From Minisyncoccota bacterium (GTDB taxonomy: Bacteria > Patescibacteriota > Minisyncoccia > Phycocordibacterales > JBAYGS01): a stretch of DNA of 64,000 nucleotides. The notes under the pieces are model-generated. The model was given only the letters and a program-made list of their open reading frames with translations, was not told the DNA's origin and did no database searches. Where the stretch lies: contig JBAYGS010000001.1 in the NCBI GenBank assembly GCA_041666545.1, positions 89,942 through 153,941 on the forward strand. Direction: 5' to 3'. The position numbers and the translations under genes are program-made. Positions 5,741 through 45,009 of the stretch are shown here, piece by piece. Each line of letters starts with the position of its first letter. The first letter of the stretch is position 1.

Positions 5741-5772
5741 AATCGGTTCTCAGTTCTTTTGTTGGATAAGCC

Positions 5773-6526: not shown

Positions 6527-6672
6527 CGAGCAATAACCAATAACCAAGAGACGATAACCAAGTCCGAACGCGTAGTCATCAATTGGAATTTTGATTCATT
6601 GAATATTGTTTGGAGCTTGTTTCTTGATTATTGGTTATTTTGCAAAAACTTTGATTTAGTTTTTCACCTCTT

Positions 6673-7764: not shown

Positions 7765-7788
7765 AAAGTATAAGTGTAAAGTATAGGT

Positions 7789-8283: not shown

Positions 8284-8342
8284 TTAAAAAACCACCCGAT
8301 TTCGCGGGTGGTTTTCGATTTCTCTTGCGTTCTCTTCACTCT

Positions 8343-9116: not shown

Positions 9117-9203
9117 TTTTTTGGTTTTTGATGTTTACCGTTTCTGCATCGGACTATACACCCAAAAGGGGATAAAGTCAAGCCCTGAAAAACCATTAAA
9201 AAG

Positions 9204-9230
9204 CCCACGTTTTGCACTGCAAAACGTGGG
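9204..9230 (-). terminator. intrinsic terminator between the two paralogs
   Basis: cccacgttttgc-act-gcaaaacgtggg with a T-run on the minus strand. Confidence 0.6.
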
Positions 9231-9250
9231 CAATTGATTCAAATAGGTCC

Positions 9251-28769: not shown

Positions 28770-30413
28770 ATGGAGATATTTGCGATATCGGGTTTAATCA
28801 ACGGGATTGTCGCCACCGCGTTCGGTGTTCTTGTTATTTTAAAAAACTGGAAGGATCGTTCGAACCAGTTATACTTTTTGATGACTGCAGCTCTAGCTCT
28901 CTGGTCTTTCAGCTATTGGCAGTGGCTTTTATCTAGTGACTACACAACCGCCCTCTTTTGGGTGCGCACCCTCTCTGTTGGATCATTGTTTATCCCAATT
29001 TTTTTCTTTCATTGGGTCATTCAGCTAACTAAAAATAGGACATATAACTGTGTTGTTCTAAAAATTGTCTACGCAATCGCCGTAATCATTATCTTTTTTG
29101 TAAATTCACCACTTTTTATTGCAAACCTAGAAGGTAAATCGATTTTTACCTTCTGGCCAAATGCCGGAATGGTGTATGACATTTATTTTTCTTATATTTA
29201 TGTCGGCTTAATTCTTTATACAATTTATATTTTGATCCGCTCGTATCGACTTGCCGCTGACAACGATCGCAAGGGACAGATTCTTTACATACTCATCGGA
29301 GCGATTCTTGGTTTTGGTGGCGGTCTGACAAATTTCCCACTTTGGTTCGGGATTCCTCTTCCGCCATATGGAAATTTTCTGGTCGCCGCCTTTCCATTTT
29401 TGCTAGGCTACTCAGTTTTAAAGTTTAAATTATTCGACGCAAAAACAATCGCCACCGAGCTCTTAGTTTTCTTCATCGAAATTATTCTACTTGTCCAAGC
29501 CGTTCTATCCAAGTCGGCTACTGAAGCAGTCCTCAAAGGGGGTCTTTTCATCGTTGTCGGAATCTTCGGCTATTTACTTATTAAAAGTGTGTATCGCGAA
29601 GTTGAGCAACGCCAACAAATCGAGCAATTGGCCGCTAAGCTTGAAGCGTCGAATGAGGCCCTGGAAGGGGTTAACAAAAATTTGGCGGTGGCGAATGAAA
29701 AGCTGAAGGAGTTGGATCAGCTGAAAAGTGAATTTGTGTCGCTGGCAACCCATCAAATCCGCGGCCCGCTTACCGCGATCAAGGGCTACGCGTCACTCAT
29801 TATGGAAGGAGATTACGGCCGAATTTCGGCCAAGGTGAAGGAGGCGCTCGACTATATTTATAAATCGACCGAATCACTTGTCCTCGTGGTTAGTGACTTC
29901 TTGGATGTCTCGCGCATCGAGCAGGGCCGAATGAAATATGATTTTAAAATTTTTGATTTTCGAGATTTGGTGAAAGAGATTGTCAATGAATTAAAACCGA
30001 ATATCGACAAAGCCGGCCTGAATTTTACTTTTGAATCCAAGGAGGAGGAAAAATTCCCAATCAACGGCGACCAGGTCAAACTCAAGCAGGTCATCGCCAA
30101 CATCATCGACAATTCGGTCAAATACACACCTAAAGGCTCCGTCAAAGTCTCCGTCACTAAGCATGGCAAGAAAATCAAGTTTGCCGTCAAGGATACGGGG
30201 GTGGGAATTTCGCCAGATACTCTGCCGAGACTCTTTGCCAAATTTAGCCGCGCCCAAGATGCCAGCTTGACCAACACTAGCGGCACAGGTCTCGGTTTGT
30301 ATCTCGCCAAAGCCATCATCGAAGCCCATCAGGGCAAAATCTGGGCCGAGTCGGAGGGGAAGGGGAAGGGTTCACAATTCTATGTCGAACTTGACGAAAC
30401 TAAGAAAATTTAG
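28770..30413 (+). CDS. sensor histidine kinase with N-terminal 7TM domain (no cognate response regulator in window)
   Basis: H-box HQIRGPLTAIKGY, N-box IIDNSVKYT, G1 DTGVGIS, G2 GTGLGLYLAK. Seven predicted TM helices. Confidence 0.85.
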   Translation: MEIFAISGLINGIVATAFGVLVILKNWKDRSNQLYFLMTAALALWSFSYWQWLLSSDYTTALFWVRTLSVGSLFIPIFFFHWVIQLTKNRTYNCVVLKIVYAIAVIIIFFVNSPLFIANLEGKSIFTFWPNAGMVYDIYFSYIYVGLILYTIYILIRSYRLAADNDRKGQILYILIGAILGFGGGLTNFPLWFGIPLPPYGNFLVAAFPFLLGYSVLKFKLFDAKTIATELLVFFIEIILLVQAVLSKSATEAVLKGGLFIVVGIFGYLLIKSVYREVEQRQQIEQLAAKLEASNEALEGVNKNLAVANEKLKELDQLKSEFVSLATHQIRGPLTAIKGYASLIMEGDYGRISAKVKEALDYIYKSTESLVLVVSDFLDVSRIEQGRMKYDFKIFDFRDLVKEIVNELKPNIDKAGLNFTFESKEEEKFPINGDQVKLKQVIANIIDNSVKYTPKGSVKVSVTKHGKKIKFAVKDTGVGISPDTLPRLFAKFSRAQDASLTNTSGTGLGLYLAKAIIEAHQGKIWAESEGKGKGSQFYVELDETKKI

Positions 30414-31231: not shown

Positions 31232-32185
31232 ATGATTCTTATTCTAACCAAGTCCTACGACCCAACGGCAGATTTTGTCTGTGAAAAAGCAAAAATGCGC
31301 GGGATAGGAGTTCACAGGGTTGATCTGGACTCCTTGCCGAAAGAAGGAACAGTGTCGATCATGGGTAACGGCTCCTGGGCTATTGATGCCAACACCGGCA
31401 AAATCGATAGCAGGGAGATTAAAAGGGTGTGGCAAAGGCGAATTCCCACAATCAAAATGGGGTTTCCTGACCCAGAAGCAAACGAGTACGCGGAAAAAGA
31501 ATGGAGACTATTGTTTGAGTGGTGGATTAATTCACTTCCGGATGGCCGGGTGTTGGATCCCGAGCACCGGCTAAAATTCGCTTACAACAAACTCCTTCAG
31601 CTTCAGTGTGCGAAACGAGTGGGATTGACTGTTCCTGACACCTTGGTCACAACAGACAGGGTGCTAGTGGAGCAATTTTATGAAAAGCACGGTGGCATGA
31701 TTGTTGTCAAATCTCTTGGTGGTTTTGGTAAAGTCCATACCGATCGGCAAGAGTTTGAAGCGATCTATACGAGCCAAGTTACAGAAAAGGATTTGGCTAG
31801 ATTATCGGAATTGAAATGTGTGCCAGTTGTTTTCCAGACCTGTATCGAAAAACTCTACGAGATCAGGGCAACGGTCGTAGGTGATCAAATCTTCTCTTGC
31901 AAAATTGAGTCCCAAAAGAGCGAGAAAACTAAAATCGACTGGAGAAAATATGATTTCAAGAATGTGCCACATACTCAGATTGAATTACCACCCGCAATTA
32001 ATGAGAAAATTCTCTCTGTGATGAGCACCTTCGGAATTCACTTCGCCTCCTTTGATCTTGCGTTTGACCAGTCCGGCCAGTACATTTTTTTTGAAATGAA
32101 CCCTAATAGTCAATGGGTTTGGATTGAAAATCTCACCGGCATGCCGATAACCGAAGCGTTGCTAGACTATCTTAACTGCGACTAA
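31232..32185 (+). CDS. ATP-grasp peptide maturase (MvdD/MdnC-like graspetide ligase)
   Basis: Collinear blocks with microviridin MvdD: VWQRRI, KLLQLQCAKRVGL, VTEKDLARLSELKCVPVVFQ, IRATVVGDQIFS, IDWRK, YIFFEMNPNSQWVWIE. Confidence 0.7.
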   Translation: MILILTKSYDPTADFVCEKAKMRGIGVHRVDLDSLPKEGTVSIMGNGSWAIDANTGKIDSREIKRVWQRRIPTIKMGFPDPEANEYAEKEWRLLFEWWINSLPDGRVLDPEHRLKFAYNKLLQLQCAKRVGLTVPDTLVTTDRVLVEQFYEKHGGMIVVKSLGGFGKVHTDRQEFEAIYTSQVTEKDLARLSELKCVPVVFQTCIEKLYEIRATVVGDQIFSCKIESQKSEKTKIDWRKYDFKNVPHTQIELPPAINEKILSVMSTFGIHFASFDLAFDQSGQYIFFEMNPNSQWVWIENLTGMPITEALLDYLNCD

Positions 32186-32333: not shown

Positions 32334-32528
32334 TAAATTTGGTCGCCCGAACCGTTCGGAACGGTTTTAGGGAGGCGAGGGATTAGTTGAGAAGTTAAAA
32401 AGCCCCGACGCTTGTCGCAAGGTCGGGACCCCGACTGAAACGCCGGGGTTTTGAAGTTGGGAGGTTTGGAAGTTTAGAAGGTAGTGGACTTATTGCGCAT
32501 CCAATTTCGCTGTGGTATTATTTACGAT

Positions 32529-32735
32529 ATGAGCACAATCGCTATTCCCAAAACAATAACTAAGGGGGAGGAACTAGTCATTATTCCTAGACGGGAGTAT
32601 GATCGCTTTTTAGCCATTATTTCCGGCAATGAAGAAATAAAAGGTGATGATGTTCTACGCTGGTCTCGAGAAGCTAAAAGACTTAAAAGAGCTGGTAAAT
32701 TACCTCTTCTGAACTCTCTTAAAAATCTTTTGTAA
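32529..32735 (+). CDS. Phd/YefM-like antitoxin
   Basis: Small acidic protein; VIIPRREYDRFL resembles the YefM core. Overlaps/abuts the downstream RelE-family toxin. The ORF is open from 32484. Confidence 0.45.
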   Translation: MSTIAIPKTITKGEELVIIPRREYDRFLAIISGNEEIKGDDVLRWSREAKRLKRAGKLPLLNSLKNLL

Positions 32736-32743
32736 AAGATTGC

Positions 32744-32998
32744 ATGAAAATTTATTTTCATCCACGATTTGCAAAGTCATTTAGCAAATTGTCGACTACG
32801 CTCAAGGCAAGGGCAATCGATAGGGAAAAGATATTTCGAATTAATCCGTTTAATTCGAGTCTCGATACTCACAAACTTCACGGAAAATTAAGAAATCAAT
32901 GGAGTTTTTCGGTTAATAGAAAGTGTAGAATTATTTTTGAATTTGTCGACAAGAATGTCATATTCCTCGACATAGGGGACCACTCACTATATCAGTAA
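32744..32998 (+). CDS. RelE/ParE-family toxin
   Basis: HKLHGKLRNQWSFSVNRKCRIIFEFVDKNVIFLDIGDHSLY is the characteristic RelE/ParE C-terminal core. Confidence 0.7.
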   Translation: MKIYFHPRFAKSFSKLSTTLKARAIDREKIFRINPFNSSLDTHKLHGKLRNQWSFSVNRKCRIIFEFVDKNVIFLDIGDHSLYQ

Positions 32999-33007
32999 TT
33001 TTAGATT

Positions 33008-33112
33008 CTCGCCAAATCAATCATCGAAGCCCACCAAGGCAAAATCTGGGCCGAATCCGAGGGTAAAGGTAAGGGGAGTCAGTTTTATGTGGAGCTGGGG
33101 GCCAAGGAATAA
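33008..33112 (+). pseudogene. histidine-kinase 3'-end remnant (LAKSIIEAHQGKIWAESEGKGKGSQFYVELGAKE*)
   Basis: Near-identical at protein level to the last 35 aa of the intact kinase. No start codon. Confidence 0.6.
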
Positions 33113-33190
33113 TTAGGACTCGGTAATTTAAGCCCCCTCCTGTGAGGTACGCTACCTTAAAGGAGGGATATAACGAATTAAAATCATTTC

Positions 33191-33658
33191 ATGAAAAGAA
33201 ACCGTTCAGCTGGAATAGTAATTAAGGACGATAAAGTTCTTGTGATGCATCGTATCAATAGAGGCGATGAATACTGGGTATTTCCTGGTGGCGGACAGGA
33301 AGACGGCGAAACATCAGAACAAACAGCGGTCCGTGAAATTGATGAGGAAACAACCATCAAAGTAAAGGTAGGAAGACCCGTATATCACATTACCTGGGAT
33401 ACGGGTGAAGAGAATTTTTTCTACCTCTGCGATTACATTTCAGGAGAGCCGAAATTGAGATCGGACTCGGAAGAAATTCATCAGATGAAGAGTGGCAAAC
33501 AAGTATATGAACCAATGTGGATCGAGATTAGTAAACTGTCCGAACTCAAGCTTTATCAATTGGAAGTACGAGATTTATTCTTGAGAGACTATAAGTCTGG
33601 TTTTCTAGAGCACATGCAAGAATTATTCATTAAGCTCGCCGAGCGAAGACATAAGTAA
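33191..33658 (+). CDS. NUDIX hydrolase
   Basis: Nudix box GGGQEDGETSEQTAVREIDEETT. Confidence 0.75.
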   Translation: MKRNRSAGIVIKDDKVLVMHRINRGDEYWVFPGGGQEDGETSEQTAVREIDEETTIKVKVGRPVYHITWDTGEENFFYLCDYISGEPKLRSDSEEIHQMKSGKQVYEPMWIEISKLSELKLYQLEVRDLFLRDYKSGFLEHMQELFIKLAERRHK

Positions 33659-33677
33659 ATTTAATAACAAAAGCCAT

Positions 33678-34286
33678 ATGAAATCTGGCAAATTACTTCT
33701 AACATCAACAGGTTTATCTTCTGGAAATATCGCAAAAAGATTTCAGAGTTTTTTTGCTGATCCTAGAAGCCAGACTGTTGCAATAGTAACAACGGCGGCA
33801 GAAGGTAAGGATCAAAATAAATATTCTCAATTGGCAAAAAAACAGTTAGAGGAAATGGGATTCGTTAAGATTGATTTTGTTGATCTTGAGGCAGAGCCAA
33901 GCAGAGACTTTTCTTCATACGGAGTTATCTATGTATGTGGAGGAAACACTTTTAAGCTTCTCAAATTTGCCCGAGAAGCAAATTTTAAAACTTCAATTGA
34001 AAACCTCCTGAGTCGAGGTGGTGTATATGTTGGCGTTAGTGCCGGAAGCATTATTGTCGGTCCTTCAATTGACATCACCAACGAGGTAGAACCCGAACCA
34101 AATGATATCGGCTTAAAAGATCTTGCTGGTTTTAGCATTACTAATCTTATTATTCTTCCTCATTATTCCTCAGAAAAGGAGCCGGCAACGGCTGATTTTG
34201 AGAAAAAATACGGAGTGAGAGTTGAGCGCTTGAACGACTCCCAGGCTGCTCTCCTAGAAAACGGAGAAGAAACTATTGTTGAATAA
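33678..34286 (+). CDS. peptidase S51 family (dipeptidase E/cyanophycinase-like)
   Basis: GGNTFKLL and GVSAGSII motifs. 202 aa. Confidence 0.6.
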   Translation: MKSGKLLLTSTGLSSGNIAKRFQSFFADPRSQTVAIVTTAAEGKDQNKYSQLAKKQLEEMGFVKIDFVDLEAEPSRDFSSYGVIYVCGGNTFKLLKFAREANFKTSIENLLSRGGVYVGVSAGSIIVGPSIDITNEVEPEPNDIGLKDLAGFSITNLIILPHYSSEKEPATADFEKKYGVRVERLNDSQAALLENGEETIVE

Positions 34287-34317
34287 AAATGGAGACACAC
34301 TTGCGTATGTCTCCATG

Positions 34318-35073
34318 TTAGAGCAACTTCTCAATATTACCTGTCAGATCCTTCACCCTTTTCCTTTTAGAAAGTCCGAGGGCGATTTCATAGATAGGCC
34401 GGTCCGAGGGCCGAAGGAGAATTGCTTGTCGCTCAAGCGAACGGAATCCACGGAGGTACTGGCGGCTGCGTGCAAACGCCAACCTGATCATTGCAGCTGT
34501 AGCATCTGAGAGGCATAGCTCTCGCTCGATGGTTGCATTTCCATGCAATTTTTCAAGTGTTGAGAGTTTTTGTTTTATCTCTTCAGTGCACAACTCAATG
34601 ATGTTTTTCGAGAGCAAAGCAGGATAGGGAATAAGTAACTCCCTCAAGCGGTCACCGGTGTCGGTTACGTCGTACAAAGTTTCAGCCGTAGCCAAATCTC
34701 CGCACAACGCCTCCGGCAACCAGTACCCGGTAGCCCATGAGCGATGTTGACCGCCCAGGTTCTTGCCCTTGATCCATCCTTCAACCTGCCGAACAAGTAG
34801 GGCCACATCGCAAACTGCGACACCACCCGTACCCGCTGGTAGATCAAAGCGTACGCTATCGTCGCACACGAAAAAGTTTCCATCAGGCCATCGTTTTCTC
34901 AGTAAAGATTCGATGATGGACGAATATGTCTCAATTCTACCCTCATCGCAACCTGCCAAGAGATCAATTTTGCCTTCCGACGAATTCCTCTTCCGTCCGA
35001 CACGTAAGAGCATTTTCATACCCTGCATCTCACGCAGAACGTGAGCAAGATCAGAGGTTACGCTACTTTTCAT
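34318..35073 (-). CDS. hypothetical protein (last gene of overlapping 4-gene operon)
   Basis: 4-nt start/stop overlap with the upstream AlaRS-like gene. GC-rich. No confident motif; possibly a nucleotidyltransferase-like fold. Confidence 0.45.
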   Translation of the reverse strand: MKSSVTSDLAHVLREMQGMKMLLRVGRKRNSSEGKIDLLAGCDEGRIETYSSIIESLLRKRWPDGNFFVCDDSVRFDLPAGTGGVAVCDVALLVRQVEGWIKGKNLGGQHRSWATGYWLPEALCGDLATAETLYDVTDTGDRLRELLIPYPALLSKNIIELCTEEIKQKLSTLEKLHGNATIERELCLSDATAAMIRLAFARSRQYLRGFRSLERQAILLRPSDRPIYEIALGLSKRKRVKDLTGNIEKLL

Positions 35074-36188
35074 AGCGCCCCCTTTCCGCGTTTCGCTTCC
35101 TCAAACCCGATTAAGGCCTTTGGAAAACCGAATGTGGATGCCAGATACTCGATGTCTGATTCGGTTAGAGGGCCATCCCTGTGGTAAACGAGCTTTTGAT
35201 ACTCTTTTCTCCCACGCTCAAGGCCTTTCTCGAATTTTGACACCTCTTCAGCAAATACGGTTTTCACCGTCTCGGCCGAAGACCACTGGTTTCCTGATAT
35301 CATGACAAACTCATCAAATGGAATCGATGCCTGCTGACAGAGGATGAATGCTTCTCGGATAAGTTTCCGAAGAACATAGTCCGCTGCCTTGTTTCCAGGC
35401 CGAAGCCCTTGTGATACCAGGATCACCGCCGCCTTGCCGAGATCGGCTAAGCGACACATGTTGGCTTGATCCTGAACTTTGGATCGTTTAGTGAGAGAGC
35501 TGACCACACCTACCCAGTTCGAGTTTTCATAGTCGCTTCGGCTGCACTCAACGGCAGTTACGATGCGATCAATACTAGCCCCTGAATCGGCAGCAATCAT
35601 CTCCAGCGGAGATTCAAAGAGGACTTCGCCTTGGAATTGGGTAAAGACCAAGTTCCAAAGTTCCATTGACTTCCCTGTGCCTGGATTTTGCCAAACAATC
35701 TCCGTACGAACGCCGCATCGGTTCCGAGTCGGTGTATAAGTGACGTTTCCATCATTGCTGATGATCCTAACACCTAGCCTTTCCCAGATTCTTTGAGACG
35801 TTTCATCTTGTGGGTGCACGGTCGCTGACAGTGTGCTGGGATTAATACCTAAGCACACCGTCAAATATCTCCATGCACTTTCGATCATCACATCCTTCAC
35901 TTCAGCTTCTTTGTCCTCGTAGAGGGAAAAGTGGCCAAGCATGTCGAATGCTAGATGATGCCTTCCTGAACGACCGATTTTCTCCCATCCATCAGTTCTC
36001 AAGCAGGTTTGCACCGAGACGACGCGACTACTTTTGGGAGATGTCCCATTAGAGATCGCGTCTTCGAATACAACTCCACCAGAGATGTTAAACAGGAGTT
36101 TCGGATTTGAACTTGCGATCGGAACACTGTCTTGCCACTTGAAACCGAAGGTCCCGAAGTGGCGCTTTATTTCAGCATACGACTTCAT
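35070..36188 (-). CDS. AlaRS aminoacylation-domain paralog (standalone, divergent)
   Basis: QTCLRTDG..HHLAFDMLGHFSL..IESAWRYLT..ELWNLVFTQFQ aligns with AlaRS QKCIRAGGKHNDLDDVG..HHTFFEMLGNFSFGDY..IQFAWELLT..EIWNIVFMQFNR. No editing or C-Ala domain. Confidence 0.6.
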   Translation of the reverse strand: MKSYAEIKRHFGTFGFKWQDSVPIASSNPKLLFNISGGVVFEDAISNGTSPKSSRVVSVQTCLRTDGWEKIGRSGRHHLAFDMLGHFSLYEDKEAEVKDVMIESAWRYLTVCLGINPSTLSATVHPQDETSQRIWERLGVRIISNDGNVTYTPTRNRCGVRTEIVWQNPGTGKSMELWNLVFTQFQGEVLFESPLEMIAADSGASIDRIVTAVECSRSDYENSNWVGVVSSLTKRSKVQDQANMCRLADLGKAAVILVSQGLRPGNKAADYVLRKLIREAFILCQQASIPFDEFVMISGNQWSSAETVKTVFAEEVSKFEKGLERGRKEYQKLVYHRDGPLTESDIEYLASTFGFPKALIGFEEAKRGKGAL

Positions 36189-37411
36189 GTGGAACCTCCC
36201 ATTGCCAAGTGTTTGAATACAGTCTGCCTGACTGCGTAGGTGAACTTGTTCATCACGGGATGAGTGACAAGTCCGTGGTTAGTGTCCCAACTTACGACAT
36301 GAGCCGGAATCCCGAGATTATCCAATATTGCCTGAGCACGTTCGATGTTCATGGAATATGCTGATCCATGAGCACAGATTTGCCGCTGAGCAAGAGGACA
36401 ACGAGACTCCTCACACTCGTGTCTGGCAAATGCCTGAACCGAAGTGATGCTAGGAATCTTGAGCATCCGAGTAAGCGCGCATGAGGATTTCAGGTATACT
36501 GGAACTCCAGAGAAGTGTTCAGCGCTCAAGGAAAAGATAAAGTCTATCAGATCTTGAGGCAGCATCTTCACATTGTCATTCTTAGGAATTTTTGGCATGG
36601 GAAGTTTGTGAATCTCCACCAGGCCATTTTCGATACCTTCAGTCCAACGCAATCCTCCAGGGATGATCATGTCAATGACGTTGCCATAGTGCTTTTCGAC
36701 CCAGAGCATCATCATTTCGATGCGATCCTTGTTTCCGCTCCATTCAGGAACGATCGGTCGCATGTACCATGCGATGGTGGCACCAGCTTCCTTTGCTTCT
36801 TCAGCATTCAGAAAGCGGTTGTTGTGAGCAGGTTCAATCGTATCAGGATTGTCTGCCCAGCACAGAGACAACATCAAGCCCCGCGTCGCATTTGTGATGC
36901 GGGCGATATCGAGCTTTCTCCCTTTCGGAACGCCACCTTTAGTGACGATCCAAAAGGGATTTCGCAGACCACGTTGCACGAATGCTTCCATGATCTCGAA
37001 TGTGCTATCTGTGACCGGTCCAGGAGCGAACGGTTCAGTGCTTGCGGTTCCGATGCTGATGATTGTCTCATTTGCAACGAAGAATGGATGCTTGATCAGT
37101 TCGTCGATGATTTGGTCAACGGTGAACTGATTGCGTCGCCTCGGTCTTTTCGGCATTGTGCCTTGATCAGCAAGATCCTGATTGGTGTCTTGCACGTGGC
37201 AGTATCTGCACTGCCACGAGCATCCAATCCAGAGATCAATACTCAGTGAGCTGTTAGACACACTGACGCACGAGAGGGGATGATTACTGTCAGGAACAAG
37301 AACTCCATACGTGTATTCACGCACAGAAAATTCTCGGCCCGTAGTCATCCCGTTGATTGTGACACGCGGTTCCGAACTGGCTGCCGCGAAGTATTCCTGT
37401 TTGGAATTCAT
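36185..37411 (-). CDS. radical SAM enzyme
   Basis: CSWQCRYC is the CxxxCxxC 4Fe-4S/SAM motif. 408 aa. Possibly SPL/COG1533-like. Overlaps both neighbours by 4 nt. Confidence 0.65.
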   Translation of the reverse strand: MNSKQEYFAAASSEPRVTINGMTTGREFSVREYTYGVLVPDSNHPLSCVSVSNSSLSIDLWIGCSWQCRYCHVQDTNQDLADQGTMPKRPRRRNQFTVDQIIDELIKHPFFVANETIISIGTASTEPFAPGPVTDSTFEIMEAFVQRGLRNPFWIVTKGGVPKGRKLDIARITNATRGLMLSLCWADNPDTIEPAHNNRFLNAEEAKEAGATIAWYMRPIVPEWSGNKDRIEMMMLWVEKHYGNVIDMIIPGGLRWTEGIENGLVEIHKLPMPKIPKNDNVKMLPQDLIDFIFSLSAEHFSGVPVYLKSSCALTRMLKIPSITSVQAFARHECEESRCPLAQRQICAHGSAYSMNIERAQAILDNLGIPAHVVSWDTNHGLVTHPVMNKFTYAVRQTVFKHLAMGGST

Positions 37412-38145
37412 GTGACAACTCCTTTCAAGTGGTTGATGTTGCGGTTTATTTGTTCTTCCGTCGTCATACCAATGACAACGGATGTTTTAAGCTGCAGGGC
37501 ATCTTTGACGAGCTGCTCGGCGGTGTGACTGGTAAGCAACTTACCCTGGCAGAAAAGACTTCTCAGAAGAATTTCCTTTTTCATCGCGAGTAAAGAAGGG
37601 AGCTGCTTAAGCACCCATTTTTGATTCCGATTGAAAGGAGCTTCGACAACATCAATGTAAGGCAAGACCTTATCACTGATGTCTGATGAAAAATCGTCTG
37701 GCAGAGAAATTCCTACCTTTTTAGCGATACCACTATCCTTCACCTCTTGCAGGTGCTGAAGAATAAACACTGCGTCTGACGACCATGAAGGAAGCCAGTT
37801 GTGCAGTAAGACTGTGTCGATCTGTGTTCTCCTGAGCCTACTCAGTGAGTTCTCTACACTTTGATCGAGATGATCACGCGAGTAGAATTCATTGATTGGA
37901 GCAGGAGCTTTCAAATCAGGTTTTTTGATCGCGGGAATTTTGGTCACAATGACCGCATCTTCCGGCAAGCATGAACCAAGTATCTCTTCAACTTCCCCTC
38001 CACCATAGACAGCCGCCGTATCAAAACGACGAATACCGTAGCTGATGGCGAAAAGTAGAAGCGATTCAATGTAGGCGGGGGACAGATTTTTGAACTGTCC
38101 TCCAAGTTGCCATGTGCCGAAGTAGAGCCGTTCAAACCATTTCAT
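37408..38145 (-). CDS. aldo/keto reductase
   Basis: GTWQLGG and FDTAAVYG N-terminal AKR signatures. Confidence 0.7.
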   Translation of the reverse strand: MKWFERLYFGTWQLGGQFKNLSPAYIESLLLFAISYGIRRFDTAAVYGGGEVEEILGSCLPEDAVIVTKIPAIKKPDLKAPAPINEFYSRDHLDQSVENSLSRLRRTQIDTVLLHNWLPSWSSDAVFILQHLQEVKDSGIAKKVGISLPDDFSSDISDKVLPYIDVVEAPFNRNQKWVLKQLPSLLAMKKEILLRSLFCQGKLLTSHTAEQLVKDALQLKTSVVIGMTTEEQINRNINHLKGVVT

Positions 38146-38310
38146 GTTTTTTCTCCTAATTTTGAGGTTGTTAAAGAGCTTTTAGTTAATTGCTTCTAGC
38201 ATAAGACTATAACAAAATCGGTGCCAGGTCAACTATACTCTTGTCAATAATTAGAATACATGTTAATCTATTCTAGGATTTGAAACCTTAACAAAAGAGA
38301 GGATACTGCA

Positions 38311-39603
38311 ATGAAACTGCCGTACAAGACAACAGAGGAAGTGCGCCAGACATTTCTGGGGCATTTTCTGAAACGTGATCATCGTCTCATCGAGCCATCA
38401 GGGATCATCCCAAAGAACGATCCGACCCTCATGTTCATTAACTCGGGCATGGCTCCGCTCAAGCCCTTCTTCACGGGCCAAGAGAAGCCCCCATCCCCAC
38501 GTCTGACGAATGTGCAGGACTGCATCAGGTTTGTGGATGTTGAAAGCGTCGGCGACTCTTATCACGGAACGAACTTTCGGATGATGGGGTCGTGGTCCTT
38601 CGGAGATTATTTCAAGGAACGAGCTATTGAGCTTGCCTTTGAACTCATTACCGACGGATTCGGAATCCCTGTTGACCGACTTTCTGCCACAGTATTCATG
38701 GCCGACGAAAGTCTACCCGGTGTGCCGAGCGATGAAGAGTCAGCCCGTATCTGGGAAAAGTTCCTGCCACGAGATCGTATCATTGGCCGACCGCCAGTCG
38801 ATAACTTCTGGGGTCCAGCTGGAACCAGTGGTCCATGTGGACCGTGCACTGAAGTTTTTTTTGATCGAGGTGAGGAATTCGCCGAGAAAAAAATCGACGA
38901 CGTGCTGGTTCCTGGGCGGCACATTGAGATCTGGAATGCCGGAGTGTTCATGCAATACTTCAAGGATGAGCAGGGGAATTTTTCCTCGCTTCCTATGAAG
39001 TGTGTGGATACAGGCGCAGGGCTCGAGCGTTTCGCAATGATTCTTCAGGATCGTGCTTCGATTCACGAAATCGATCAGTACGATTTGACCTATCAACTCA
39101 TCAATCAGCGCGTTGGTGATACGGCATGGACACGGGTCATACTTGATCATGTCAAGACCTCGATTCTGATGATTCGGGAAGGTATCGTCCCAAGCAACAC
39201 TCGGGAAGGGTATCTTCTCCGTCGTGCGCTTCGGCGTGCAATGATTGGTGTCTTCCTGCGGGGGATCAATCTGACCATTCTTCAGGAGTGGGCAGACTCC
39301 CTTAGTCAAGTGATTGATAACAAGGACCTGACCTTCCGTCAGAAATCTGTTATTGCTCACTGGCTCAGCGAGGAGCGTGACAGCTTCGAGAAGCTGATGC
39401 GTCGCAGCAGGAAGTATCTCGACAAGATCGTGGCCTCTAAGGAGTTGGATGCGCAACACGCATTCACTTTGAAAACCGGCATAGGCATCCCCGAAGATCT
39501 TTTGGAGGAATTCTGTGTTCGTCAAGGCATTCTGTTTCCGAAGGTTGAGTTCCTTCGACTTATCGGGGAACACCGGAACATCTCTCGTCGGCCGAAGAAG
39601 TAG
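38311..39603 (+). CDS. alaS: alanyl-tRNA synthetase, N-terminal aminoacylation + tRNA-recognition half only (430 aa)
   Basis: FINSGMAPLKPFF, QDCIRFVDVESVGDSYHGTNFRMMGSWSFGDYFK, GPCGPCTEVFFDRG, EIWNAGVFMQYF, VDTGAGLERFAMILQ. Ends with a strong terminator at 39622-39653. No editing or C-Ala domains. Confidence 0.8.
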   Translation: MKLPYKTTEEVRQTFLGHFLKRDHRLIEPSGIIPKNDPTLMFINSGMAPLKPFFTGQEKPPSPRLTNVQDCIRFVDVESVGDSYHGTNFRMMGSWSFGDYFKERAIELAFELITDGFGIPVDRLSATVFMADESLPGVPSDEESARIWEKFLPRDRIIGRPPVDNFWGPAGTSGPCGPCTEVFFDRGEEFAEKKIDDVLVPGRHIEIWNAGVFMQYFKDEQGNFSSLPMKCVDTGAGLERFAMILQDRASIHEIDQYDLTYQLINQRVGDTAWTRVILDHVKTSILMIREGIVPSNTREGYLLRRALRRAMIGVFLRGINLTILQEWADSLSQVIDNKDLTFRQKSVIAHWLSEERDSFEKLMRRSRKYLDKIVASKELDAQHAFTLKTGIGIPEDLLEEFCVRQGILFPKVEFLRLIGEHRNISRRPKK

Positions 39604-39741
39604 TTCTTTCGGCAACAAACAAGCCCACCTCGTTCATATCGGGGTGGGCTTTTATTTTGCTACCCCCAAGTCATCCAGAGATGATTTTTGTTAAAAGGTT
39701 ATCTTGAGTTTCCCATCGGTTCCATTCGAAGGTAGGATCGG

Positions 39742-39807
39742 ACCGAATCCGAAGGTAAGGGCAAGGGTAGCCAATTCTATGTGGAGGTTGAGGAAGCAAG
39801 GGATTAG
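39742..39807 (+). pseudogene. histidine-kinase 3'-end remnant (TESEGKGKGSQFYVEVEEARD*)
   Basis: Third degenerate copy of the kinase C-terminus. Followed by the junction motif agggattagttgagaagtt shared with the 32262 remnant. Confidence 0.55.
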
Positions 39808-39904
39808 TTGAGAAGTTTTGAAGTTTAGATGTTGAGGAGTTAAAGAGTTTTAGAATTAAGCTGAGGTTGTTTTATGACACAAAATATGCTATTCTATCAA
39901 ATAT

Positions 39905-40150
39905 ATGATTTCAGAATTTGTTGAAAATAAGCTTAAAAATGCTCTATATAAAATCCTAGAAGACAAGACCTACTTTGGCGAAATCAAAGGGGTTAAGGGT
40001 GTTTGGGCAAATGCCAAAACCCTTGAGTCTTGTCGGGCAGAGCTCCGTGAGGTGCTTGAGGATTGGATTTTACTGCAAGTGCGAAACGGAAACAAAATCT
40101 CCGGCTTACCACTGAGTTTCGATCGACGCAAAGATTTTTCCTATGCCTAG
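39905..40150 (+). CDS. hicB: HicB-family antitoxin
   Basis: UPF0150-like small protein (EIKGVKGVWANAKTLESCRAELREVLEDWILL) overlapping the downstream HicA. Confidence 0.55.
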   Translation: MISEFVENKLKNALYKILEDKTYFGEIKGVKGVWANAKTLESCRAELREVLEDWILLQVRNGNKISGLPLSFDRRKDFSYA

Positions 40151-40355
40151 GAACATCTCGCTTCGGATGTTAGTTAAAAAGTTTCGGGCACTGGGTTTTG
40201 ACGGCCCCTATTCCGGTAGTCGTCATCTTTTTATGGCCAAAAGGGATCTAAAAGTGAGAATCCCCAACCCACACAAAGGCGACATTTCAAAACATTTGGT
40301 AGCAGAGATACTTAGGCAGGCGGAAATTACAAGTGACGAATGGGAAAAAGCATAA
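40143..40355 (+). CDS. hicA: HicA-family toxin (mRNA interferase)
   Basis: KKFRALGFDGPYSGSRHLFMAKRDLKVRIPNPHKGDISKHLVAEILRQAEI matches the YcfA/HicA fold signature. Confidence 0.6.
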   Translation: MPRNISLRMLVKKFRALGFDGPYSGSRHLFMAKRDLKVRIPNPHKGDISKHLVAEILRQAEITSDEWEKA

Positions 40356-40362
40356 TCAGCGA

Positions 40363-41817
40363 CTATACCCTCGGCCTCATGAGAGGGAAAAGCTGAGCTT
40401 CGCGGATGCTTTTACCAGAGAGGAAACTGAAGAGTCGCTCCGAGACACCGAAACCAAACATCGGCGGCATGCCATATTCCATCGCCTCAACATATTCAAA
40501 GTCGGCCATTTGGGCCTCTTCATCGCCGGCATCACGGAGTTTTTGCTGTTTTTCAAAGCGCTCACGCTGATCGATAGGATTATTAAGCTCATTAAAAGCC
40601 TTGCCAACTTCACTACCCGCCAGGACAATCTGAAAGCGATCAACTACCCGATTATCTTTAGCATTCATCTTAGCGAGTGGTTCCAGATACACCGGAATAC
40701 CAGTCAAAACTGCCGGACCGCCGAGAGTCTTGCGGATTTGCTTCCAGAGCAAATCCACGCCTCGCCCGACATCAATCTTGGGTTCGTGAGGAATTTTTTC
40801 TTTTTTCAGAGAATCAAACACCGTGTTCAAATCAACCGTGCAGGGGTCAAAACCATATTTTTCAGACATCAGGTCGTTGTAATCAAGCTTTTGCCAGTCT
40901 GCCCCGAGATCAATCTCAAACTTTCCAATCGTAAATTTCAGAGTGCCGAAAGTTTTCTGGGCGACTTCGCGATACAAATCAATCAACATCGGCACACCCT
41001 TTCTCGCATCTTGAAAAGCCTCGTAAAATTCGAAGTGAGTGTAGTCTTGAGCGTGTTCGTAGGACATACCTTCGTTTCGGAACACTCGTCCGATTTCAAA
41101 GGTTTTTGGAATCCCGCCGACCATCAACTTCTTGTGCCACAATTCGGTCGAAATGCGAAGATAAACATCCAAGTCCAAGGCATTGTGGTGAGTGATAAAA
41201 GGTCGGGCTTCAGCGCCACCAGTTTTGGTCTCCAGAATCGGAGTTTCAACTTCAACAAAACCCCGCACAAGCATAAACGAACGGACCGCATTCCAAAAAA
41301 TCGAGCGCTTCCTCGCAATTTCGGCCACCTCGGGATTTAAAAGCATATCCAAGTAGCGTTTGCGGTACCGTTCATCCTCATCCTTCAGACCAAACCATTC
41401 GTCCGGCACTTGGCGCAGACTTTTAGCGAGCATTCGCCAACTGGTGCCGAGTAGGGAATTGGCCCCGCGTTTGGTAGTAAATGGGGTGCCTGTCACCTCT
41501 ATAAAATCGCTGGTATCAACTGTTTCAGTGAACAATTTAAAACTGTCCTCACCCAAGTCATCTTTCTTAATCAATGCCTGGACACGAGCGGTGCCATCAA
41601 ACAAATCGACGAAAATAATGCTACCTTGATCTCGACGAGACATAATCCGGCCAGCCAGGGTGACCGACTTTCCGGATTTCAAAAGCGCCTCAAAAGACTC
41701 GGCAAAAGTCCGATTATCATGACTACGAAAAGACTCGGCCGGATAAGGATCGATGCCGTGTCCCCTCAATATTTCCAATTTGGCCAGACGCTCAGAGCGT
41801 GTATCTTCGATAGACAT
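40363..41817 (-). CDS. lysS: lysyl-tRNA synthetase (class II)
   Basis: N-terminal OB domain, class IIb motifs. 484 aa. Confidence 0.9.
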   Translation of the reverse strand: MSIEDTRSERLAKLEILRGHGIDPYPAESFRSHDNRTFAESFEALLKSGKSVTLAGRIMSRRDQGSIIFVDLFDGTARVQALIKKDDLGEDSFKLFTETVDTSDFIEVTGTPFTTKRGANSLLGTSWRMLAKSLRQVPDEWFGLKDEDERYRKRYLDMLLNPEVAEIARKRSIFWNAVRSFMLVRGFVEVETPILETKTGGAEARPFITHHNALDLDVYLRISTELWHKKLMVGGIPKTFEIGRVFRNEGMSYEHAQDYTHFEFYEAFQDARKGVPMLIDLYREVAQKTFGTLKFTIGKFEIDLGADWQKLDYNDLMSEKYGFDPCTVDLNTVFDSLKKEKIPHEPKIDVGRGVDLLWKQIRKTLGGPAVLTGIPVYLEPLAKMNAKDNRVVDRFQIVLAGSEVGKAFNELNNPIDQRERFEKQQKLRDAGDEEAQMADFEYVEAMEYGMPPMFGFGVSERLFSFLSGKSIREAQLFPLMRPRV

Positions 41818-42120: not shown

Positions 42121-43452
42121 ATGAAAAAAGCTCCCGCCAAGGACAACCCGGCCGTCATGGAGGATATAATCTCACTCGCCAAGAGGCGAGGCTTTATCTA
42201 TCAAGGCTCCGAGATTTACGGCGGTCTTTCCGGAACCTGGGACTACGGCCCTTTGGGTGTGGCACTTAAAGACAACATCCGCCAGATTTGGTGGAAACAA
42301 TTTGTACTCGACCGTGACGATATGTACGGGATGGATGCCGCGATTTTGATGAATCAAAAAGTTTGGCAGGCGACCGGCCACGCGACTAACTTTTCCGACC
42401 CTCTCACCCCATGTCTAAAATGCAAAAAACAATTCCGCACTGACCACCTAAACGGCGCCACCAAGTGTCCGGAATGTGGGGGCAATTTCGGCCCAGAGAG
42501 AAAATTCAACATGATGTTTAAGACCAATGTCGGCCCTGAAGAAGGTGGAGGAAGTTTGTCATATTTGCGACCGGAAACCGCTCAAGGTATGTTTGTGAAT
42601 TTCAAAAATGTTTTGGATTCCTTCCATCCTAAATTGCCTTTTGGTCTGGCCCAAGTCGGTAAGGCTTTCCGAAACGAAATCTCGCCTCGAGACTTCACTT
42701 TCCGAGCTCGTGAGTTTGAACAAATGGAGATTGAATATTTTGTTAAACCAGAGGGTTGGGAGAAGATTTTTGAACATTTCGTTTCTGAAATGAGAAACTT
42801 TATCTCGGCCGTTGGAATTTCTGCGGACAAAGTCCACGAAAAAGAAATCGGCGATGCCGATCGGGCCTTTTATTCCAAACGCACGATTGATTTTGAATTT
42901 GATTTCCCTTTTGGCCAAAGCGAGCTTTACGGCTTGGCTTACCGTACCGATTATGACCTGAAAGCCCACGAAACCGAAAGTGGCAAGACTTTGGTTTATA
43001 CTGACACCGAAGCCAACGAGACTTTAGTGCCACACTGCATCGAGCCATCATTTGGTCTTGATCGAACCGTTTTGGCGGTCCTTTCAAGCGCCTTCAAAAA
43101 AGAGAAAACTGGCGAGGATGAGAGGATTGTTTTGAAATTTAACCCTAAAGTTGCTCCGGTATTGCTCGCAGTCTCGCCGCTTCTCCGAAACAAGCCGAAG
43201 TTGGTTGAAAAAGCCCAAGAAATCTACAAAACCTTGAAAAAGGAATTTGGCCGAGTGATGTTTGATGACAATGGCAACATCGGCAAGCGTTATCGCAGGC
43301 AAGATGAAATCGGCACGCCATTTTGCATTACTGTCGACTTCGACACCATTGAAAAAGATGACACTGTCACTGTCCGTGACCGAGACACGATGGAACAAGT
43401 CCGAATTAGATCCGACGAACTCGTCTCATTTTTTAAGAACAAATTAGCCTAG
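42121..43452 (+). CDS. glyQS: glycyl-tRNA synthetase, dimeric (glyQS-type)
   Basis: Eukaryote/archaeal-like class II GlyRS motifs. 443 aa. Confidence 0.9.
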   Translation: MKKAPAKDNPAVMEDIISLAKRRGFIYQGSEIYGGLSGTWDYGPLGVALKDNIRQIWWKQFVLDRDDMYGMDAAILMNQKVWQATGHATNFSDPLTPCLKCKKQFRTDHLNGATKCPECGGNFGPERKFNMMFKTNVGPEEGGGSLSYLRPETAQGMFVNFKNVLDSFHPKLPFGLAQVGKAFRNEISPRDFTFRAREFEQMEIEYFVKPEGWEKIFEHFVSEMRNFISAVGISADKVHEKEIGDADRAFYSKRTIDFEFDFPFGQSELYGLAYRTDYDLKAHETESGKTLVYTDTEANETLVPHCIEPSFGLDRTVLAVLSSAFKKEKTGEDERIVLKFNPKVAPVLLAVSPLLRNKPKLVEKAQEIYKTLKKEFGRVMFDDNGNIGKRYRRQDEIGTPFCITVDFDTIEKDDTVTVRDRDTMEQVRIRSDELVSFFKNKLA

Positions 43453-44006: not shown

Positions 44007-44049
44007 ATTGCTTTATCACAATTAAATTTTGAGATATACTGAAGCAACT

Positions 44050-45009
44050 ATGGCCGACAAAAAGAAAATTTTACTATCGGGCATCAAACCAACCGGCAAT
44101 TTGCATTTGGGCAACTATTTCGGAGCGATCAAGCAATTCGTAGAATTGCAAAATAAGTACGATTCCTATGTTTTCATCGCCGACTATCACGCCATGACAA
44201 CTCTCCTTGATGCCAAGGAACTATCAGAGAATAGTTTTAACATTGCGGTAGATTACATGGCCTTGGGTCTTGACCCGACGAAAATGACGCTTTTCAAGCA
44301 AAGCGACCTGCCCCAAGTGACCGAACTTTGCTGGATTTTCAACTGTCTAACAACTGTGCCATACCTCGAAAGAGCTCACGCCTATAAGGACGCGGTCGCC
44401 AAAGGTAAAGAGGCCAACATCGGACTTTTTGATTACCCAATTTTGATGGCCGCTGATATTTTAATCCAGGATGCTGATATCGTACCGGTGGGGCAAGACC
44501 AGAAACAACATGTCGAATACGCTCGCGACACGGCGGAAAAATTTAACCGCACCTTCGGTAAAGCCTTTAAAATTCCTGAACCTTACATCCTGAAAGATGT
44601 CGCCGTGGTCCCCGGAATTGACGGTCAAAAAATGAGCAAGAGCTATAACAACACCATTCCTATTTTCGCTTCAGATGAAGAGATCAAAAAACTAGTTATG
44701 GGGATTGTCACCGATTCCAACTCCGGACGTCCCGAAAATGTTTACGCCATTCATAAGCTGATTAAACCGGAAGCCGAGCTTGAAAAAGTTTACACAGAAT
44801 TTGCCGGCAAGTATCAAAAATTAAAGGAGGCTCTTTACAATGACCTCGTCTCATTCTTGACACCCTTCCGTGAAAAACGGGAGCAACTGCTTAAGGATAG
44901 GGCAGGGGTCTTGGCAATTCTCAAAGCTGGAGGCGACAAAGCCCGCGCCCGCGCTGAAGCTAAAATGGCAGAGGTCCGTAAACTGACCGGCCTGACTTTG
45001 ACCGCTTAA
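44050..45009 (+). CDS. trpS: tryptophanyl-tRNA synthetase (canonical)
   Basis: ILLSGIKPTGNLHLGNYFGAI, YPILMAADIL, VPVGQDQKQHVEYARDTAEKFN, KMSKS. The ORF is open from 44029. Confidence 0.85.
   Translation: MADKKKILLSGIKPTGNLHLGNYFGAIKQFVELQNKYDSYVFIADYHAMTTLLDAKELSENSFNIAVDYMALGLDPTKMTLFKQSDLPQVTELCWIFNCLTTVPYLERAHAYKDAVAKGKEANIGLFDYPILMAADILIQDADIVPVGQDQKQHVEYARDTAEKFNRTFGKAFKIPEPYILKDVAVVPGIDGQKMSKSYNNTIPIFASDEEIKKLVMGIVTDSNSGRPENVYAIHKLIKPEAELEKVYTEFAGKYQKLKEALYNDLVSFLTPFREKREQLLKDRAGVLAILKAGGDKARARAEAKMAEVRKLTGLTLTA

Follow-up and report, generated by a model that had tools for sequence, protein, structure and literature searches.

A 64,000-nt stretch of the genome of a Minisyncoccota bacterium (contig JBAYGS010000001.1, positions 89,942-153,941 of the forward strand; hereafter the window) carries six genes that travel together, encoding an S51 serine peptidase, a nucleotidyltransferase-like protein (NTase), a 372-aa paralog of alanyl-tRNA synthetase (AlaRS) that we call AlaL, a radical SAM enzyme, an aldo-keto reductase (AKR) and a 430-aa AlaRS (mini-AlaRS). 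The same set, rearranged yet linked, is shared across about 90 loci, and the synthetase type is swapped between sister cassettes, with Ala, Lys and Asp versions. We tentatively read the set as a mobile six-gene cassette for ribosome-independent biosynthesis of, and self-immunity against, a stable mimic of alanyl-adenylate, such as an aminoacyl-nucleoside or aminoacyl-nucleotide. The observations come from gene content and linkage, sequence and residue conservation, gene fusions, folds and the exchange of synthetases, and the features in the window are as follows.

33678-34286, plus strand: S51 serine peptidase gene (PepE/MccG family), convergent with the operon
34289-34316: bidirectional terminator-like hairpin between the two convergent stop codons, a 12-bp stem followed by a T-run, found by a consensus scan
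34318-35073, minus strand: NTase-like protein, 251 aa, last gene of the operon
35070-36188, minus strand: AlaL, 372-aa AlaRS paralog
36185-37411, minus strand: radical SAM enzyme, 408 aa, with a fold like that of spore photoproduct lyase (SPL)
37408-38145, minus strand: AKR, 245 aa, first gene of the operon
38146-38310: intergenic promoter region from which the AKR operon and the mini-AlaRS gene diverge
38311-39603, plus strand: mini-AlaRS, 430 aa
39621-39651, plus strand: intrinsic-terminator-like hairpin after the mini-AlaRS gene, a 12-bp stem (8 GC pairs) with a loop of 7 nt, followed by a T-run

A preliminary description of this DNA had pointed to four minus-strand genes overlapping by 4 nt, and each of the three junctions (37408-37411, 36185-36188 and 35070-35073) indeed reads ATGA on the coding strand, with the start codon laid over the stop codon. 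It had also placed a strong hairpin after a divergent 430-aa AlaRS carrying WSFGDYFK, GPCGPCTE and DTGAGLERF; all three strings are present, and the hairpin is found at 39621-39651, T-run included. The operon genes are as it stated; the conserved unit, however, is six genes and not four, since it adds the S51 gene and the 430-aa AlaRS. Its notion of a GC-rich island is not borne out, as the GC content of the module is 0.487 against 0.465 for the window, and the GC content at third codon positions (GC3) of five cassette genes (0.48-0.57) matches that of the adjacent LysRS and GlyRS genes (0.51). The S51 gene, with a GC3 of 0.286, is unlike the other five and may have a history different from the rest of the cassette. 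The promoter region shows a mean column identity of 75% over four loci, with a conserved TTGAC box. A 7-codon open reading frame (ORF) in this region (MLIYSRI) was considered as a precursor peptide and rejected, being kept in locus L005 and not in L007 or L008. No riboswitch, T-box or other RNA element was found in Rfam at E ≤ 1 over 33000-40400, and there are no tRNA genes near the module within the window. Long antisense ORFs at 36515-37249 (plus strand, 244 aa, in the radical SAM gene) and 38740-39618 (minus strand, 292 aa, in the mini-AlaRS gene) are most likely non-genes; they are treated as artefacts because related loci show them only where conservation of the sense gene is high.

The distribution of the cassette was followed in two ways. 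An AlaL-based scan with one genome per species gave 23 loci, each a species-level genome, with true family members among 185,579, and a metagenome scan with the radical SAM profile gave 62 loci. The preliminary description had left co-occurrence in other genomes to be followed up, and the block proves to be conserved there, as a six-gene set. Its hosts are Patescibacteria and gut Firmicutes, the latter known from metagenome-assembled genomes in which the NTase is fused to the AKR and an S66 peptidase replaces S51. BLAST of the window genes finds mini-AlaRS, AKR, radical SAM enzyme, AlaL and the 251-aa gene together with a convergent S51 gene in Parcubacteria-type genomes (L005-L013). In Saccharibacteria (L023-L026) the operon runs mini-AlaRS, AKR, radical SAM enzyme, NTase, with AlaL convergent, and in gut genomes labelled Bacilli or Clostridia the S66 peptidase lies between the radical SAM gene and AlaL. 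All six genes stand on one strand in L086 and L131, the AKR is coupled to mini-AlaRS in L006, L096 and L120, and gut Firmicutes loci have the cassette without mini-AlaRS. The flanks are non-syntenic even where cassette proteins are 85-96% identical, ordinary tRNA genes border the cassette in many loci, and a transposase lies beside it in gut locus L140. The cassette appears accessory and mobile, given its rarity (23 of 185,579), these flanks, the bordering tRNA genes, the L140 transposase and its absence from Southlakia, a cultivated Saccharibacterium.

Two further ideas about its role drew no support. No consistent tRNA, dedicated or suppressor, of the kind expected for pyl-like code expansion, was found among 60 loci, and none of the seven proteins searched had an anti-phage defence match in PADLOC. 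Full-text literature searches found no publication on this gene combination. Synthetase paralogs in natural-product clusters, resistant synthetase copies and immunity by MccF and MccG are known already; what is new is the cassette itself, with its core of SPL-like radical SAM enzyme, AKR and NTase, a synthetase slot open to exchange and a distribution over Patescibacteria and gut Firmicutes.

AlaL consists of the class II catalytic core and the tRNA-recognition helical domain only. It matches Pfam tRNA-synt_2c with an E-value of 2.7e-43 over profile positions 19-401 of 552, and scores 155 bits against TIGR00344, far under the cut-off of 457, which agrees with the preliminary description of the 372-aa gene as a paralog of the AlaRS aminoacylation domain that lacks the editing and C-Ala parts. 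The family comprises about 107 clusters of 370-390 aa with identities as low as 35%, and a sharp drop in score separates it from true AlaRS, to which AlaL is 25% identical. Alignment to solved AlaRS fragments shows that R64, F81, E163, E176, N179, V181, D201, G203 and R208, invariant in 34 family members, are the equivalents of E. coli R69, F90, E183, E209, N212, V214, D235, G237 and R243. AlaL no longer has W170 or the GPCGPC motif and carries Ser in place of D400, while Asn303 is kept. The AlphaFold (AF2) model has a predicted local distance difference test (pLDDT) score of 92.5 and superposes on AlaRS catalytic fragments with template modelling (TM) scores of 0.77-0.82 (0.80-0.82 to 9jc7 and 1riq), showing that the class II core is retained, and the family alignment indicates that the alanine-pocket residues are retained as well, the point on which the preliminary description had proposed a structural check. 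Judging from these residues, AlaL almost certainly binds ATP and a small amino acid and, as all ATP- and alanine-binding positions are invariant in the 34 members, has very probably kept the ability to activate alanine; it does not qualify as a normal AlaRS. AlaRS-like paralogs form at least three subfamilies, one of which carries a D235 to E change, as does AcmF of the ascamycin cluster. Because no AlaL relatives were found on IMG/VR contigs, phage carriage was dropped as an idea.

The 430-aa mini-AlaRS is closer to canonical AlaRS. It matches tRNA-synt_2c with an E-value of 3.2e-99 over positions 1-430 of 552 and the E. coli AlaRS 1-441 fragment with an E-value of 2e-69, and scores 345 bits against TIGR00344, still under the 457-bit equivalog cut-off. 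It has no match to PF07973, the tRNA_SAD editing domain, and no C-Ala, and its gene ends ahead of the terminator. Its 120 best database matches are 317-472 aa long, nearly all 417-440, with identities down to 42%, and NCBI names these relatives "alanine--tRNA ligase-related protein". Ten residues (R69, F90, W170, E183, E209, N212, V214, D235, G237 and R243) are conserved in 118/118 family members. Among the residues that read G3:U70, Asn303 is kept in 103/118 and Asp400 in 26/118, the window protein having Thr in the latter position. The mini-AlaRS of Tupanvirus likewise consists of catalytic and tRNA-recognition domains only and lacks the Asp that reads G3:U70, and it shows that such a loss need not abolish charging of tRNAAla; it differs in being a viral enzyme of eukaryotic descent (PMC10036535). 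With the "small-AlaRS" of CPR/DPANN (bioRxiv 10.1101/2023.05.29.542759) the window enzyme shares a 4-residue deletion in the motif-2 loop, whereas small-AlaRS retains its editing domain. Neither the viral nor the small enzyme has been reported beside an AlaRS-like paralog or in a cassette of radical SAM enzyme, AKR, NTase and peptidase.

The genomic setting bears on what this enzyme is for. An AlaRS-like paralog adjoins mini-AlaRS in every context examined, including seven further contexts of distant mini-AlaRS genes, in which the paralog is adjacent and often overlapping and an S51 or S66 peptidase is usually nearby; in several lineages mini-AlaRS is operon-coupled to AKR, radical SAM or NTase genes. 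The preliminary description had offered the alternative that the 430-aa gene is one half of a split housekeeping AlaRS. Neither the window nor the 95 related loci contain a homologue of the editing or C-Ala part, save for the full-length 895-aa AlaRS that occupies the mini-AlaRS position in L132. The split reading is weakened further by the 430-aa form being a family of its own (118 members analysed), always beside an AlaRS-like paralog and operon-coupled. A Nanoarchaeum-type split AlaRS likewise finds no support, as no second gene for the remaining domains lies within the window or, L132 aside, the 95 loci. The cultivated Southlakia has no cassette and a single PF01411 gene, an essential 635-aa AlaRS with an editing domain. 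Given the adjacent paralogs, the absence of an editing half from the window and the 95 loci, and the Southlakia AlaRS, it is more likely that mini-AlaRS is an accessory, cassette-dedicated enzyme rather than the housekeeping one.

The genes for the AKR, the radical SAM enzyme and the NTase would form the tailoring part of the cassette. The domain calls that the preliminary description gave for two of them hold. The AKR matches Pfam Aldo_ket_red (E 1.5e-28; 100 bits, the cut-off being 24), with only the N-terminal half of the 245-aa protein aligning to the profile, and its catalytic tetrad D42/Y47/K69/H115 is invariant in 20/20 homologues. It is fused to the NTase in gut loci, and elsewhere it is coupled to mini-AlaRS, to a class I LysRS or to an AspRS core. 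The radical SAM assignment rests on its cluster motif, CSWQCRYC (CxxxCxxC), and its fold, the Pfam Radical_SAM score being weak (19.2 bits, under the cut-off of 29.5). The fold is a partial TIM barrel of the radical SAM type whose best match is SPL and not Cfr; identity to SPL is 14%, and no SPL model matched. A C-terminal extension of 100 residues contains four extra invariant cysteines (C311, C333, C338 and C346), which would suggest a second cluster. This enzyme is the most conserved of the cassette, with up to 96% identity across loci, and belongs to a family of 241 clusters. Enzymes of the SPL and COG1533 "DNA repair photolyase" group are the nearest known ones; the genomic context here has no link to DNA repair. 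In L121, L122 and L125 the radical SAM gene (about 8000-9220) stands without other cassette genes, beside a CYTH (triphosphate tunnel) protein, a neighbour that hints at a nucleoside triphosphate as the substrate.

The third of these genes encodes the 251-aa protein that the preliminary description had called unknown. Its placement beside the AlaRS paralog stands; it is now identified as a probable Pol-beta-type NTase domain, fused to the AKR in other lineages. The window protein has no Pfam match, so the assignment goes through its remote relatives: of 46 found by phmmer, 13 match NTP_transf_2 (best 7.5e-6), 12 Polbeta and 13 DUF4037 (best 5.6e-9). The family alignment displays h-V-G-[SR]..x10..[DK]-x-D-L-L and an invariant DD (D37, D71, D72), the relatives reading VGS...DxDLL...DD and the window protein VGR...KIDLL...DD. 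On this basis the protein is predicted to be an NTase-like member of the Pol-beta superfamily with a DUF4037-type helical C-terminal part. Comparisons by hhalign with kanamycin nucleotidyltransferase (for which an approximate query sequence was used) and with a single NTase, that of L088, were non-significant, and PDB profile searches with the radical SAM and NTase alignments gave nothing useful. In gut Firmicutes the NTase forms the N-terminal part of its fusion with the AKR.

The sixth gene encodes a protein of the Peptidase_S51 family (PF03575; E 9e-29, 101 bits against a cut-off of 23.9), with 61 bits to NCBIfam PepE, below the equivalog cut-off, and DR_1070 and PepE as the nearest solved structures. 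Ser121 and His162 are invariant in 15/15 homologues, and on reading the N-terminal sequence, rather than by a predictor, no signal peptide is evident. The gene stands in synteny with the module in 12 of the genome loci examined first and in most metagenome loci, and in gut Firmicutes its place is taken by an S66 peptidase of the LdcA/MccF family. Both families, S51 through MccG and S66 through MccF, have been shown experimentally to detoxify aminoacyl-nucleotide inhibitors of aminoacyl-tRNA synthetases, and their resistance enzymes often stand alone (PMC9239234). This precedent for immunity accounts for an interchange of S51 and S66 that is otherwise odd and, by analogy, the window enzyme may be an MccG-type hydrolase of an aminoacyl-nucleotide carboxamide bond. 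In Lys- and Asp-type cassettes the S51 protein is 44-56% identical to that of the window, with the radical SAM enzyme still at 78-86%; in Ala-type cassettes the figure is 59-86% at similar radical SAM identity, and 66-77% where the radical SAM enzymes are 84-85% identical. Since S51 identity is thus lower in Lys- and Asp-type than in Ala-type cassettes at like radical SAM identity, sequence comparison suggests that the peptidase co-varies with the amino acid of the cassette.

The synthetase itself varies between cassettes. Some cassettes whose radical SAM enzyme is 71-86% identical to that of the window have neither AlaL nor mini-AlaRS and carry another synthetase instead, usually coupled to the AKR. 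In 18 loci the slot holds a class I LysRS (345 bits to lysS_arch against a cut-off of 147.55), and in L105, L108 and L109 a 304-aa AspRS catalytic core without anticodon or GAD domains. Among the 37 loci in which the radical SAM gene has 3.5 kb or more of sequence to either side, 27 have AlaL, with or without mini-AlaRS, five the class I LysRS and five no synthetase; in three loci the radical SAM gene is accompanied only by a CYTH protein. In L140, from human gut (2207-9928), the class I LysRS is fused to a calcineurin-like metallophosphoesterase and follows S51, the radical SAM gene and the NTase-AKR fusion, with a Mu-type transposase/integrase upstream. Directly after the radical SAM gene of L142 stands an MFS transporter.

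A second kind of cluster was seen around type-2 pairs of mini-AlaRS and AlaL (L084 9353-13463, L087 10348-13714, L089 10349-13329 and L085 2422-11902). It combines an AsnA-like AsnRS catalytic core lacking the anticodon domain with an S66 peptidase, a SAM decarboxylase and one or two methyltransferases, with a pyridoxal phosphate (PLP) decarboxylase and a NodU-type carbamoyltransferase instead in L085, and is reminiscent of the decoration and immunity genes MccD, MccE and MccF.

Among known systems the closest is the ascamycin cluster of Streptomyces sp. 80H647 (Zheng et al. 2024, reviewed in PMC12945691). There AcmD is an extra AlaRS that supplies Ala-tRNA and is more drug-resistant, the nucleoside is alanylated by AcmF, a truncated AlaRS-like protein that has just the aminoacylation and tRNA-recognition domains, and the alanine is taken off by the hydrolase AcmE, ascamycin itself being an alanyl-adenylate mimic (PMC12945691). 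Mini-AlaRS, AlaL and S51 hold the same three roles as AcmD, AcmF and AcmE, the equivalence of S51 and AcmE being the presumed member of the three, and AlaL, like AcmF, is truncated and in most loci has an extra AlaRS and an S51 or S66 peptidase as neighbours. There are also clear differences. AcmF has lost residues for ATP and alanine activation (N219Q, D232E), whereas AlaL keeps all of them and only type-2 paralogs elsewhere show the D235 to E change; AcmE is a secreted alpha/beta hydrolase, unlike the window S51 with no evident signal peptide; the window has no sulfamate or halogenase genes, and its tailoring set of SPL-like radical SAM enzyme, AKR and NTase is unrelated; the host is a Patescibacterium, and the synthetase type of the cassette is exchangeable. 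Microcin C offers the second comparison, as both of its immunity families, MccF (S66) and MccG (S51), occur in the cassette and replace each other there (PMC9239234). In contrast to microcin C, the six genes include no MccA precursor, ThiF-like MccB or MccD/E by Pfam, the aminoacyl part would come from synthetase paralogs and not from a ribosomal peptide, and S51 falls below the PepE equivalog cut-off. The pairing of a class II catalytic-core paralog with a radical SAM enzyme has a parallel in EpmA, a core-only LysRS paralog that activates an amino acid for a non-tRNA acceptor, and EpmB. EpmB, however, is a PLP-dependent lysine 2,3-aminomutase, whereas the window radical SAM enzyme is SPL-like, and EF-P modification involves no reductase, NTase, peptidase or second synthetase.

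An antibiotic-type reading is favoured because mini-AlaRS, AlaL and S51 map onto the ascamycin triad and the remaining enzymes are nucleotide-oriented, as are the CYTH, HAD and metallophosphoesterase partners found in cassette variants. The catalytic steps, the kind of product and its role as a toxin are inferred as follows. Mini-AlaRS would be the cluster-dedicated AlaRS, supplying Ala-tRNAAla, serving as a drug-insensitive copy of the target, or both, like AcmD. AlaL would put the alanyl group on a non-canonical acceptor, either directly via Ala-AMP or by a reversal of tRNA charging as in AcmF. The SPL-like radical SAM enzyme, the AKR and the NTase would build or remodel the nucleoside or nucleotide part so that the aminoacyl link is no longer labile, and the cytoplasmic S51 peptidase, elsewhere S66, would cleave the aminoacyl-nucleotide bond and shield the producer as MccG and MccF do against microcin C. 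In sister cassettes the alanine-specific genes would be exchanged for a class I LysRS or a truncated AspRS core, giving lysyl or aspartyl versions. The NTase-AKR and LysRS-metallophosphoesterase fusions are in line with such a pathway, as are the intact catalytic residues of AlaL, mini-AlaRS (118/118), AKR (20/20) and S51 (15/15). The preliminary description had proposed an undescribed tailoring system that activates alanine or a related amino acid; the co-transcribed AlaRS paralog, radical SAM enzyme and reductase are retained in the present reading, which differs in having six genes and no compositional island.

Several observations weigh against this biosynthesis-plus-immunity reading. By Pfam there is no exporter within the six genes, L142 alone having an adjacent MFS transporter, and no sulfamate, ThiF-like or other known gene for aminoacyl-nucleotide formation. 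AlaL keeps all activation residues and so is no orthologue of AcmF, and a separate truncated transferase is missing from Lys-type cassettes. In 5/37 well-flanked loci the radical SAM gene has no synthetase nearby, and in gut Clostridia only S66 and AlaL occur, which suits a resistance pair as well as biosynthesis. The catalytic competence of the window NTase is uncertain, the first Asp of its DxD motif appearing as K-I-D, and searches of PADLOC, Rfam and PDB sequences brought nothing bearing on function.

A more ambitious form of the same idea, possible yet on the unlikely side, is that ultra-small parasitic bacteria and certain gut Firmicutes use the cassettes to make a new chemical class of aminoacyl-adenylate mimics, formed with neither ribosomal peptide nor nonribosomal peptide synthetase, and that the cassettes act as a plug-and-play toxin and immunity module against translation of the host or of competitors, the first antibiotic pathway of Patescibacteria. 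Ala or Asp catalytic-core paralogs or class I LysRS would then deliver the amino acid, and the radical SAM enzyme with the reductase-NTase pair would make a non-hydrolysable link. As pure speculation, the activated carboxyl might be reduced and the resulting alcohol adenylylated, giving an aminoalkyl-adenylate.

Of the competing explanations the one that survives best, although we consider it unlikely, is a pathway acting on aminoacyl-tRNA or tRNA, in which the radical SAM enzyme, reductase and NTase would transform a tRNA-bound amino acid or the tRNA 3' end and the peptidase would trim or recycle the product. Such a pathway would belong to primary or cell-envelope metabolism and not to toxin production, with analogies in Glu-tRNA reductase, conversions of the Sec/Pyl type and tRNA repair. 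It would explain why real or near-real synthetases are a constant of the cassette, including a class I LysRS above its equivalog cut-off and the full AlaRS of L132, and why AlaL keeps its tRNA-recognition domain and Asn303; an SPL-like fold implies a substrate of nucleic-acid type, and CCA-adding enzymes and tRNA-modifying toxins are found among the Pol-beta NTases. Peptidoglycan stems and bridges, moreover, are built with Ala, Lys and Asp, and S66 is the family of the LD-carboxypeptidases. Against this, the 60 loci have no dedicated or suppressor tRNA gene alongside the cassette, Rfam yielded no element, no tRNA-related meaning is known for the exchange of S51 and S66, and the rarity, patchiness and mobility of the cassette speak against a core function. 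D400, moreover, varies among mini-AlaRS family members, and fragment data on E. coli AlaRS define a region required by that enzyme for charging which AlaL is too short to include.

A resistance-only island, which shields the cell from aminoacyl-adenylate-type antibiotics of neighbours or hosts and makes no compound, is a quite unlikely account. Its tools would be drug-insensitive synthetase copies (mini-AlaRS, AlaL, class I LysRS), an MccG/MccF-type hydrolase, an NTase like the antibiotic nucleotidyltransferases (ANT), a reductase and a Cfr-like radical SAM enzyme. Resistance by S51 and S66 enzymes, often stand-alone, is on record, the minimal pair of S66 and AlaL in gut Clostridia lacks tailoring genes, the core has no exporter, and the NTase falls in the broad NTP_transf_2/DUF4037 group, which presumably includes the antibiotic nucleotidyltransferases. 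The translational coupling of four genes, the radical SAM enzyme as the most conserved member and the NTase-AKR fusion nevertheless point to a pathway acting on one substrate; AlaL is too diverged for a back-up enzyme (25% identity, W170 and GPCGPC lost), a role that mini-AlaRS already fills, and the best fold match of the radical SAM enzyme is SPL and not Cfr.

Very unlikely is the production of a non-proteinogenic amino-acid antimetabolite, here an alanine analogue, with the AlaRS copies as discriminating, self-protective synthetases. Radical SAM and reductase chemistry is common in the formation of such amino acids, the active site of mini-AlaRS is perfectly conserved, and clustered genes for tRNA quality control, e.g., tRNA deacylases, mark such pathways (PMC13149037), which may be counted in its favour. 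However, one set of radical SAM enzyme, AKR and NTase (radical SAM 71-86% identical) pairs with Ala-, Lys- and Asp-synthetases, which is hard to reconcile with a single amino-acid skeleton, mini-AlaRS has no editing domain, and the NTase, CYTH, metallophosphoesterase and MccG/MccF-type peptidases would be left unexplained.

The least probable account, and a very doubtful one, is that the 430-aa protein is the AlaRS of the lineage, or a split half of it, next to an unrelated or loosely related operon: its fully conserved active site, the activity of the E. coli N-terminal fragment 461N in aminoacylation and the other synthetase genes just downstream (LysRS, GlyRS and a Trp/TyrRS-type class I enzyme) would fit, yet mini-AlaRS is always accompanied by an AlaRS-like paralog, stands in one operon with cassette genes in several lineages and forms a patchy family, cassette-free Southlakia relies on an AlaRS of 635 aa that is essential and includes an editing domain, genes for an editing or C-Ala part are missing from the surroundings of the 95 loci, and gut Firmicutes cassettes do without mini-AlaRS. 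That the viral mini-AlaRS is active in aminoacylation (PMC10036535) also counts for this account.

The prevailing view of Patescibacteria is of organisms that exploit host cells for their living and have next to no secondary metabolism. If the favoured reading of a biosynthesis-plus-immunity cassette is true, this would be the first predicted antibiotic-type pathway in the group and a molecular candidate for harming or controlling hosts, and a logic known from one Streptomyces cluster would extend to a widespread modular family with swapped specificity (Ala, Lys, Asp). It would also give a context to a radical SAM family of 241 clusters within the poorly understood SPL/COG1533 group, turn about 120 or more "alanine--tRNA ligase-related" database proteins into cluster-dedicated and not housekeeping AlaRSs, and lend the gut-metagenome versions relevance for the human microbiome. 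Even if no toxin is made, the tight coupling of an exchangeable synthetase to the enzyme trio points to unexplored chemistry of activated amino acids.

The surroundings of the cassette in the window hold further genes. The left flank between 24 and 34 kb is the AT-rich part of the window (GC 0.424). In it, an MvdD-type ATP-grasp ligase (PF21068 and RimK; 31232-32185, plus strand) lies 1.5 kb left of the S51 gene, with small ORFs upstream, and may mark a graspetide-type locus for a ribosomally made, post-translationally modified peptide (RiPP). A homologue with 35% identity lies near the type-2 pair of AlaL and mini-AlaRS in L087 (17454-18443), beside a nitroreductase-like gene. Toxin-antitoxin-type genes occupy 32484-32998 (plus strand), with a HigB/RelE-like toxin at 32744-32998 and an 83-aa partner upstream. 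The Nudix, ATP-grasp and toxin-antitoxin genes of this flank were rejected as parts of the cassette, as they are not conserved with the module and the ATP-grasp homologue was met in one locus only.

To the right, a HicB/UPF0150-like gene (39905-40150, plus strand) lies just past the mini-AlaRS terminator, followed by a class II LysRS (40363-41817, minus strand), a GlyRS-like gene (42121-43452) and a class I synthetase of the Trp/Tyr type (44029-45009). A class IIb synthetase near the cassette is also found in L120, L142 and L149; such additional synthetases may belong to the pattern or reflect chance, the genome being small. No other ORF of the window recurs consistently with the module, the only recurrent one (8 loci) being a sensor histidine kinase of the seven-transmembrane type. 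It lies within a few kb of the cassette in the window (28770-30413, plus strand), L086 (870-2516), L087 (13815-15449) and L003 (11559-13394), and its proximity may be coincidence, the family being large. Seven kb left of the cassette, an ABC-F-type protein of 536 aa (25257-26867, plus strand) has two ABC domains and no membrane domain; the ABC-F family includes ribosome-protection factors.

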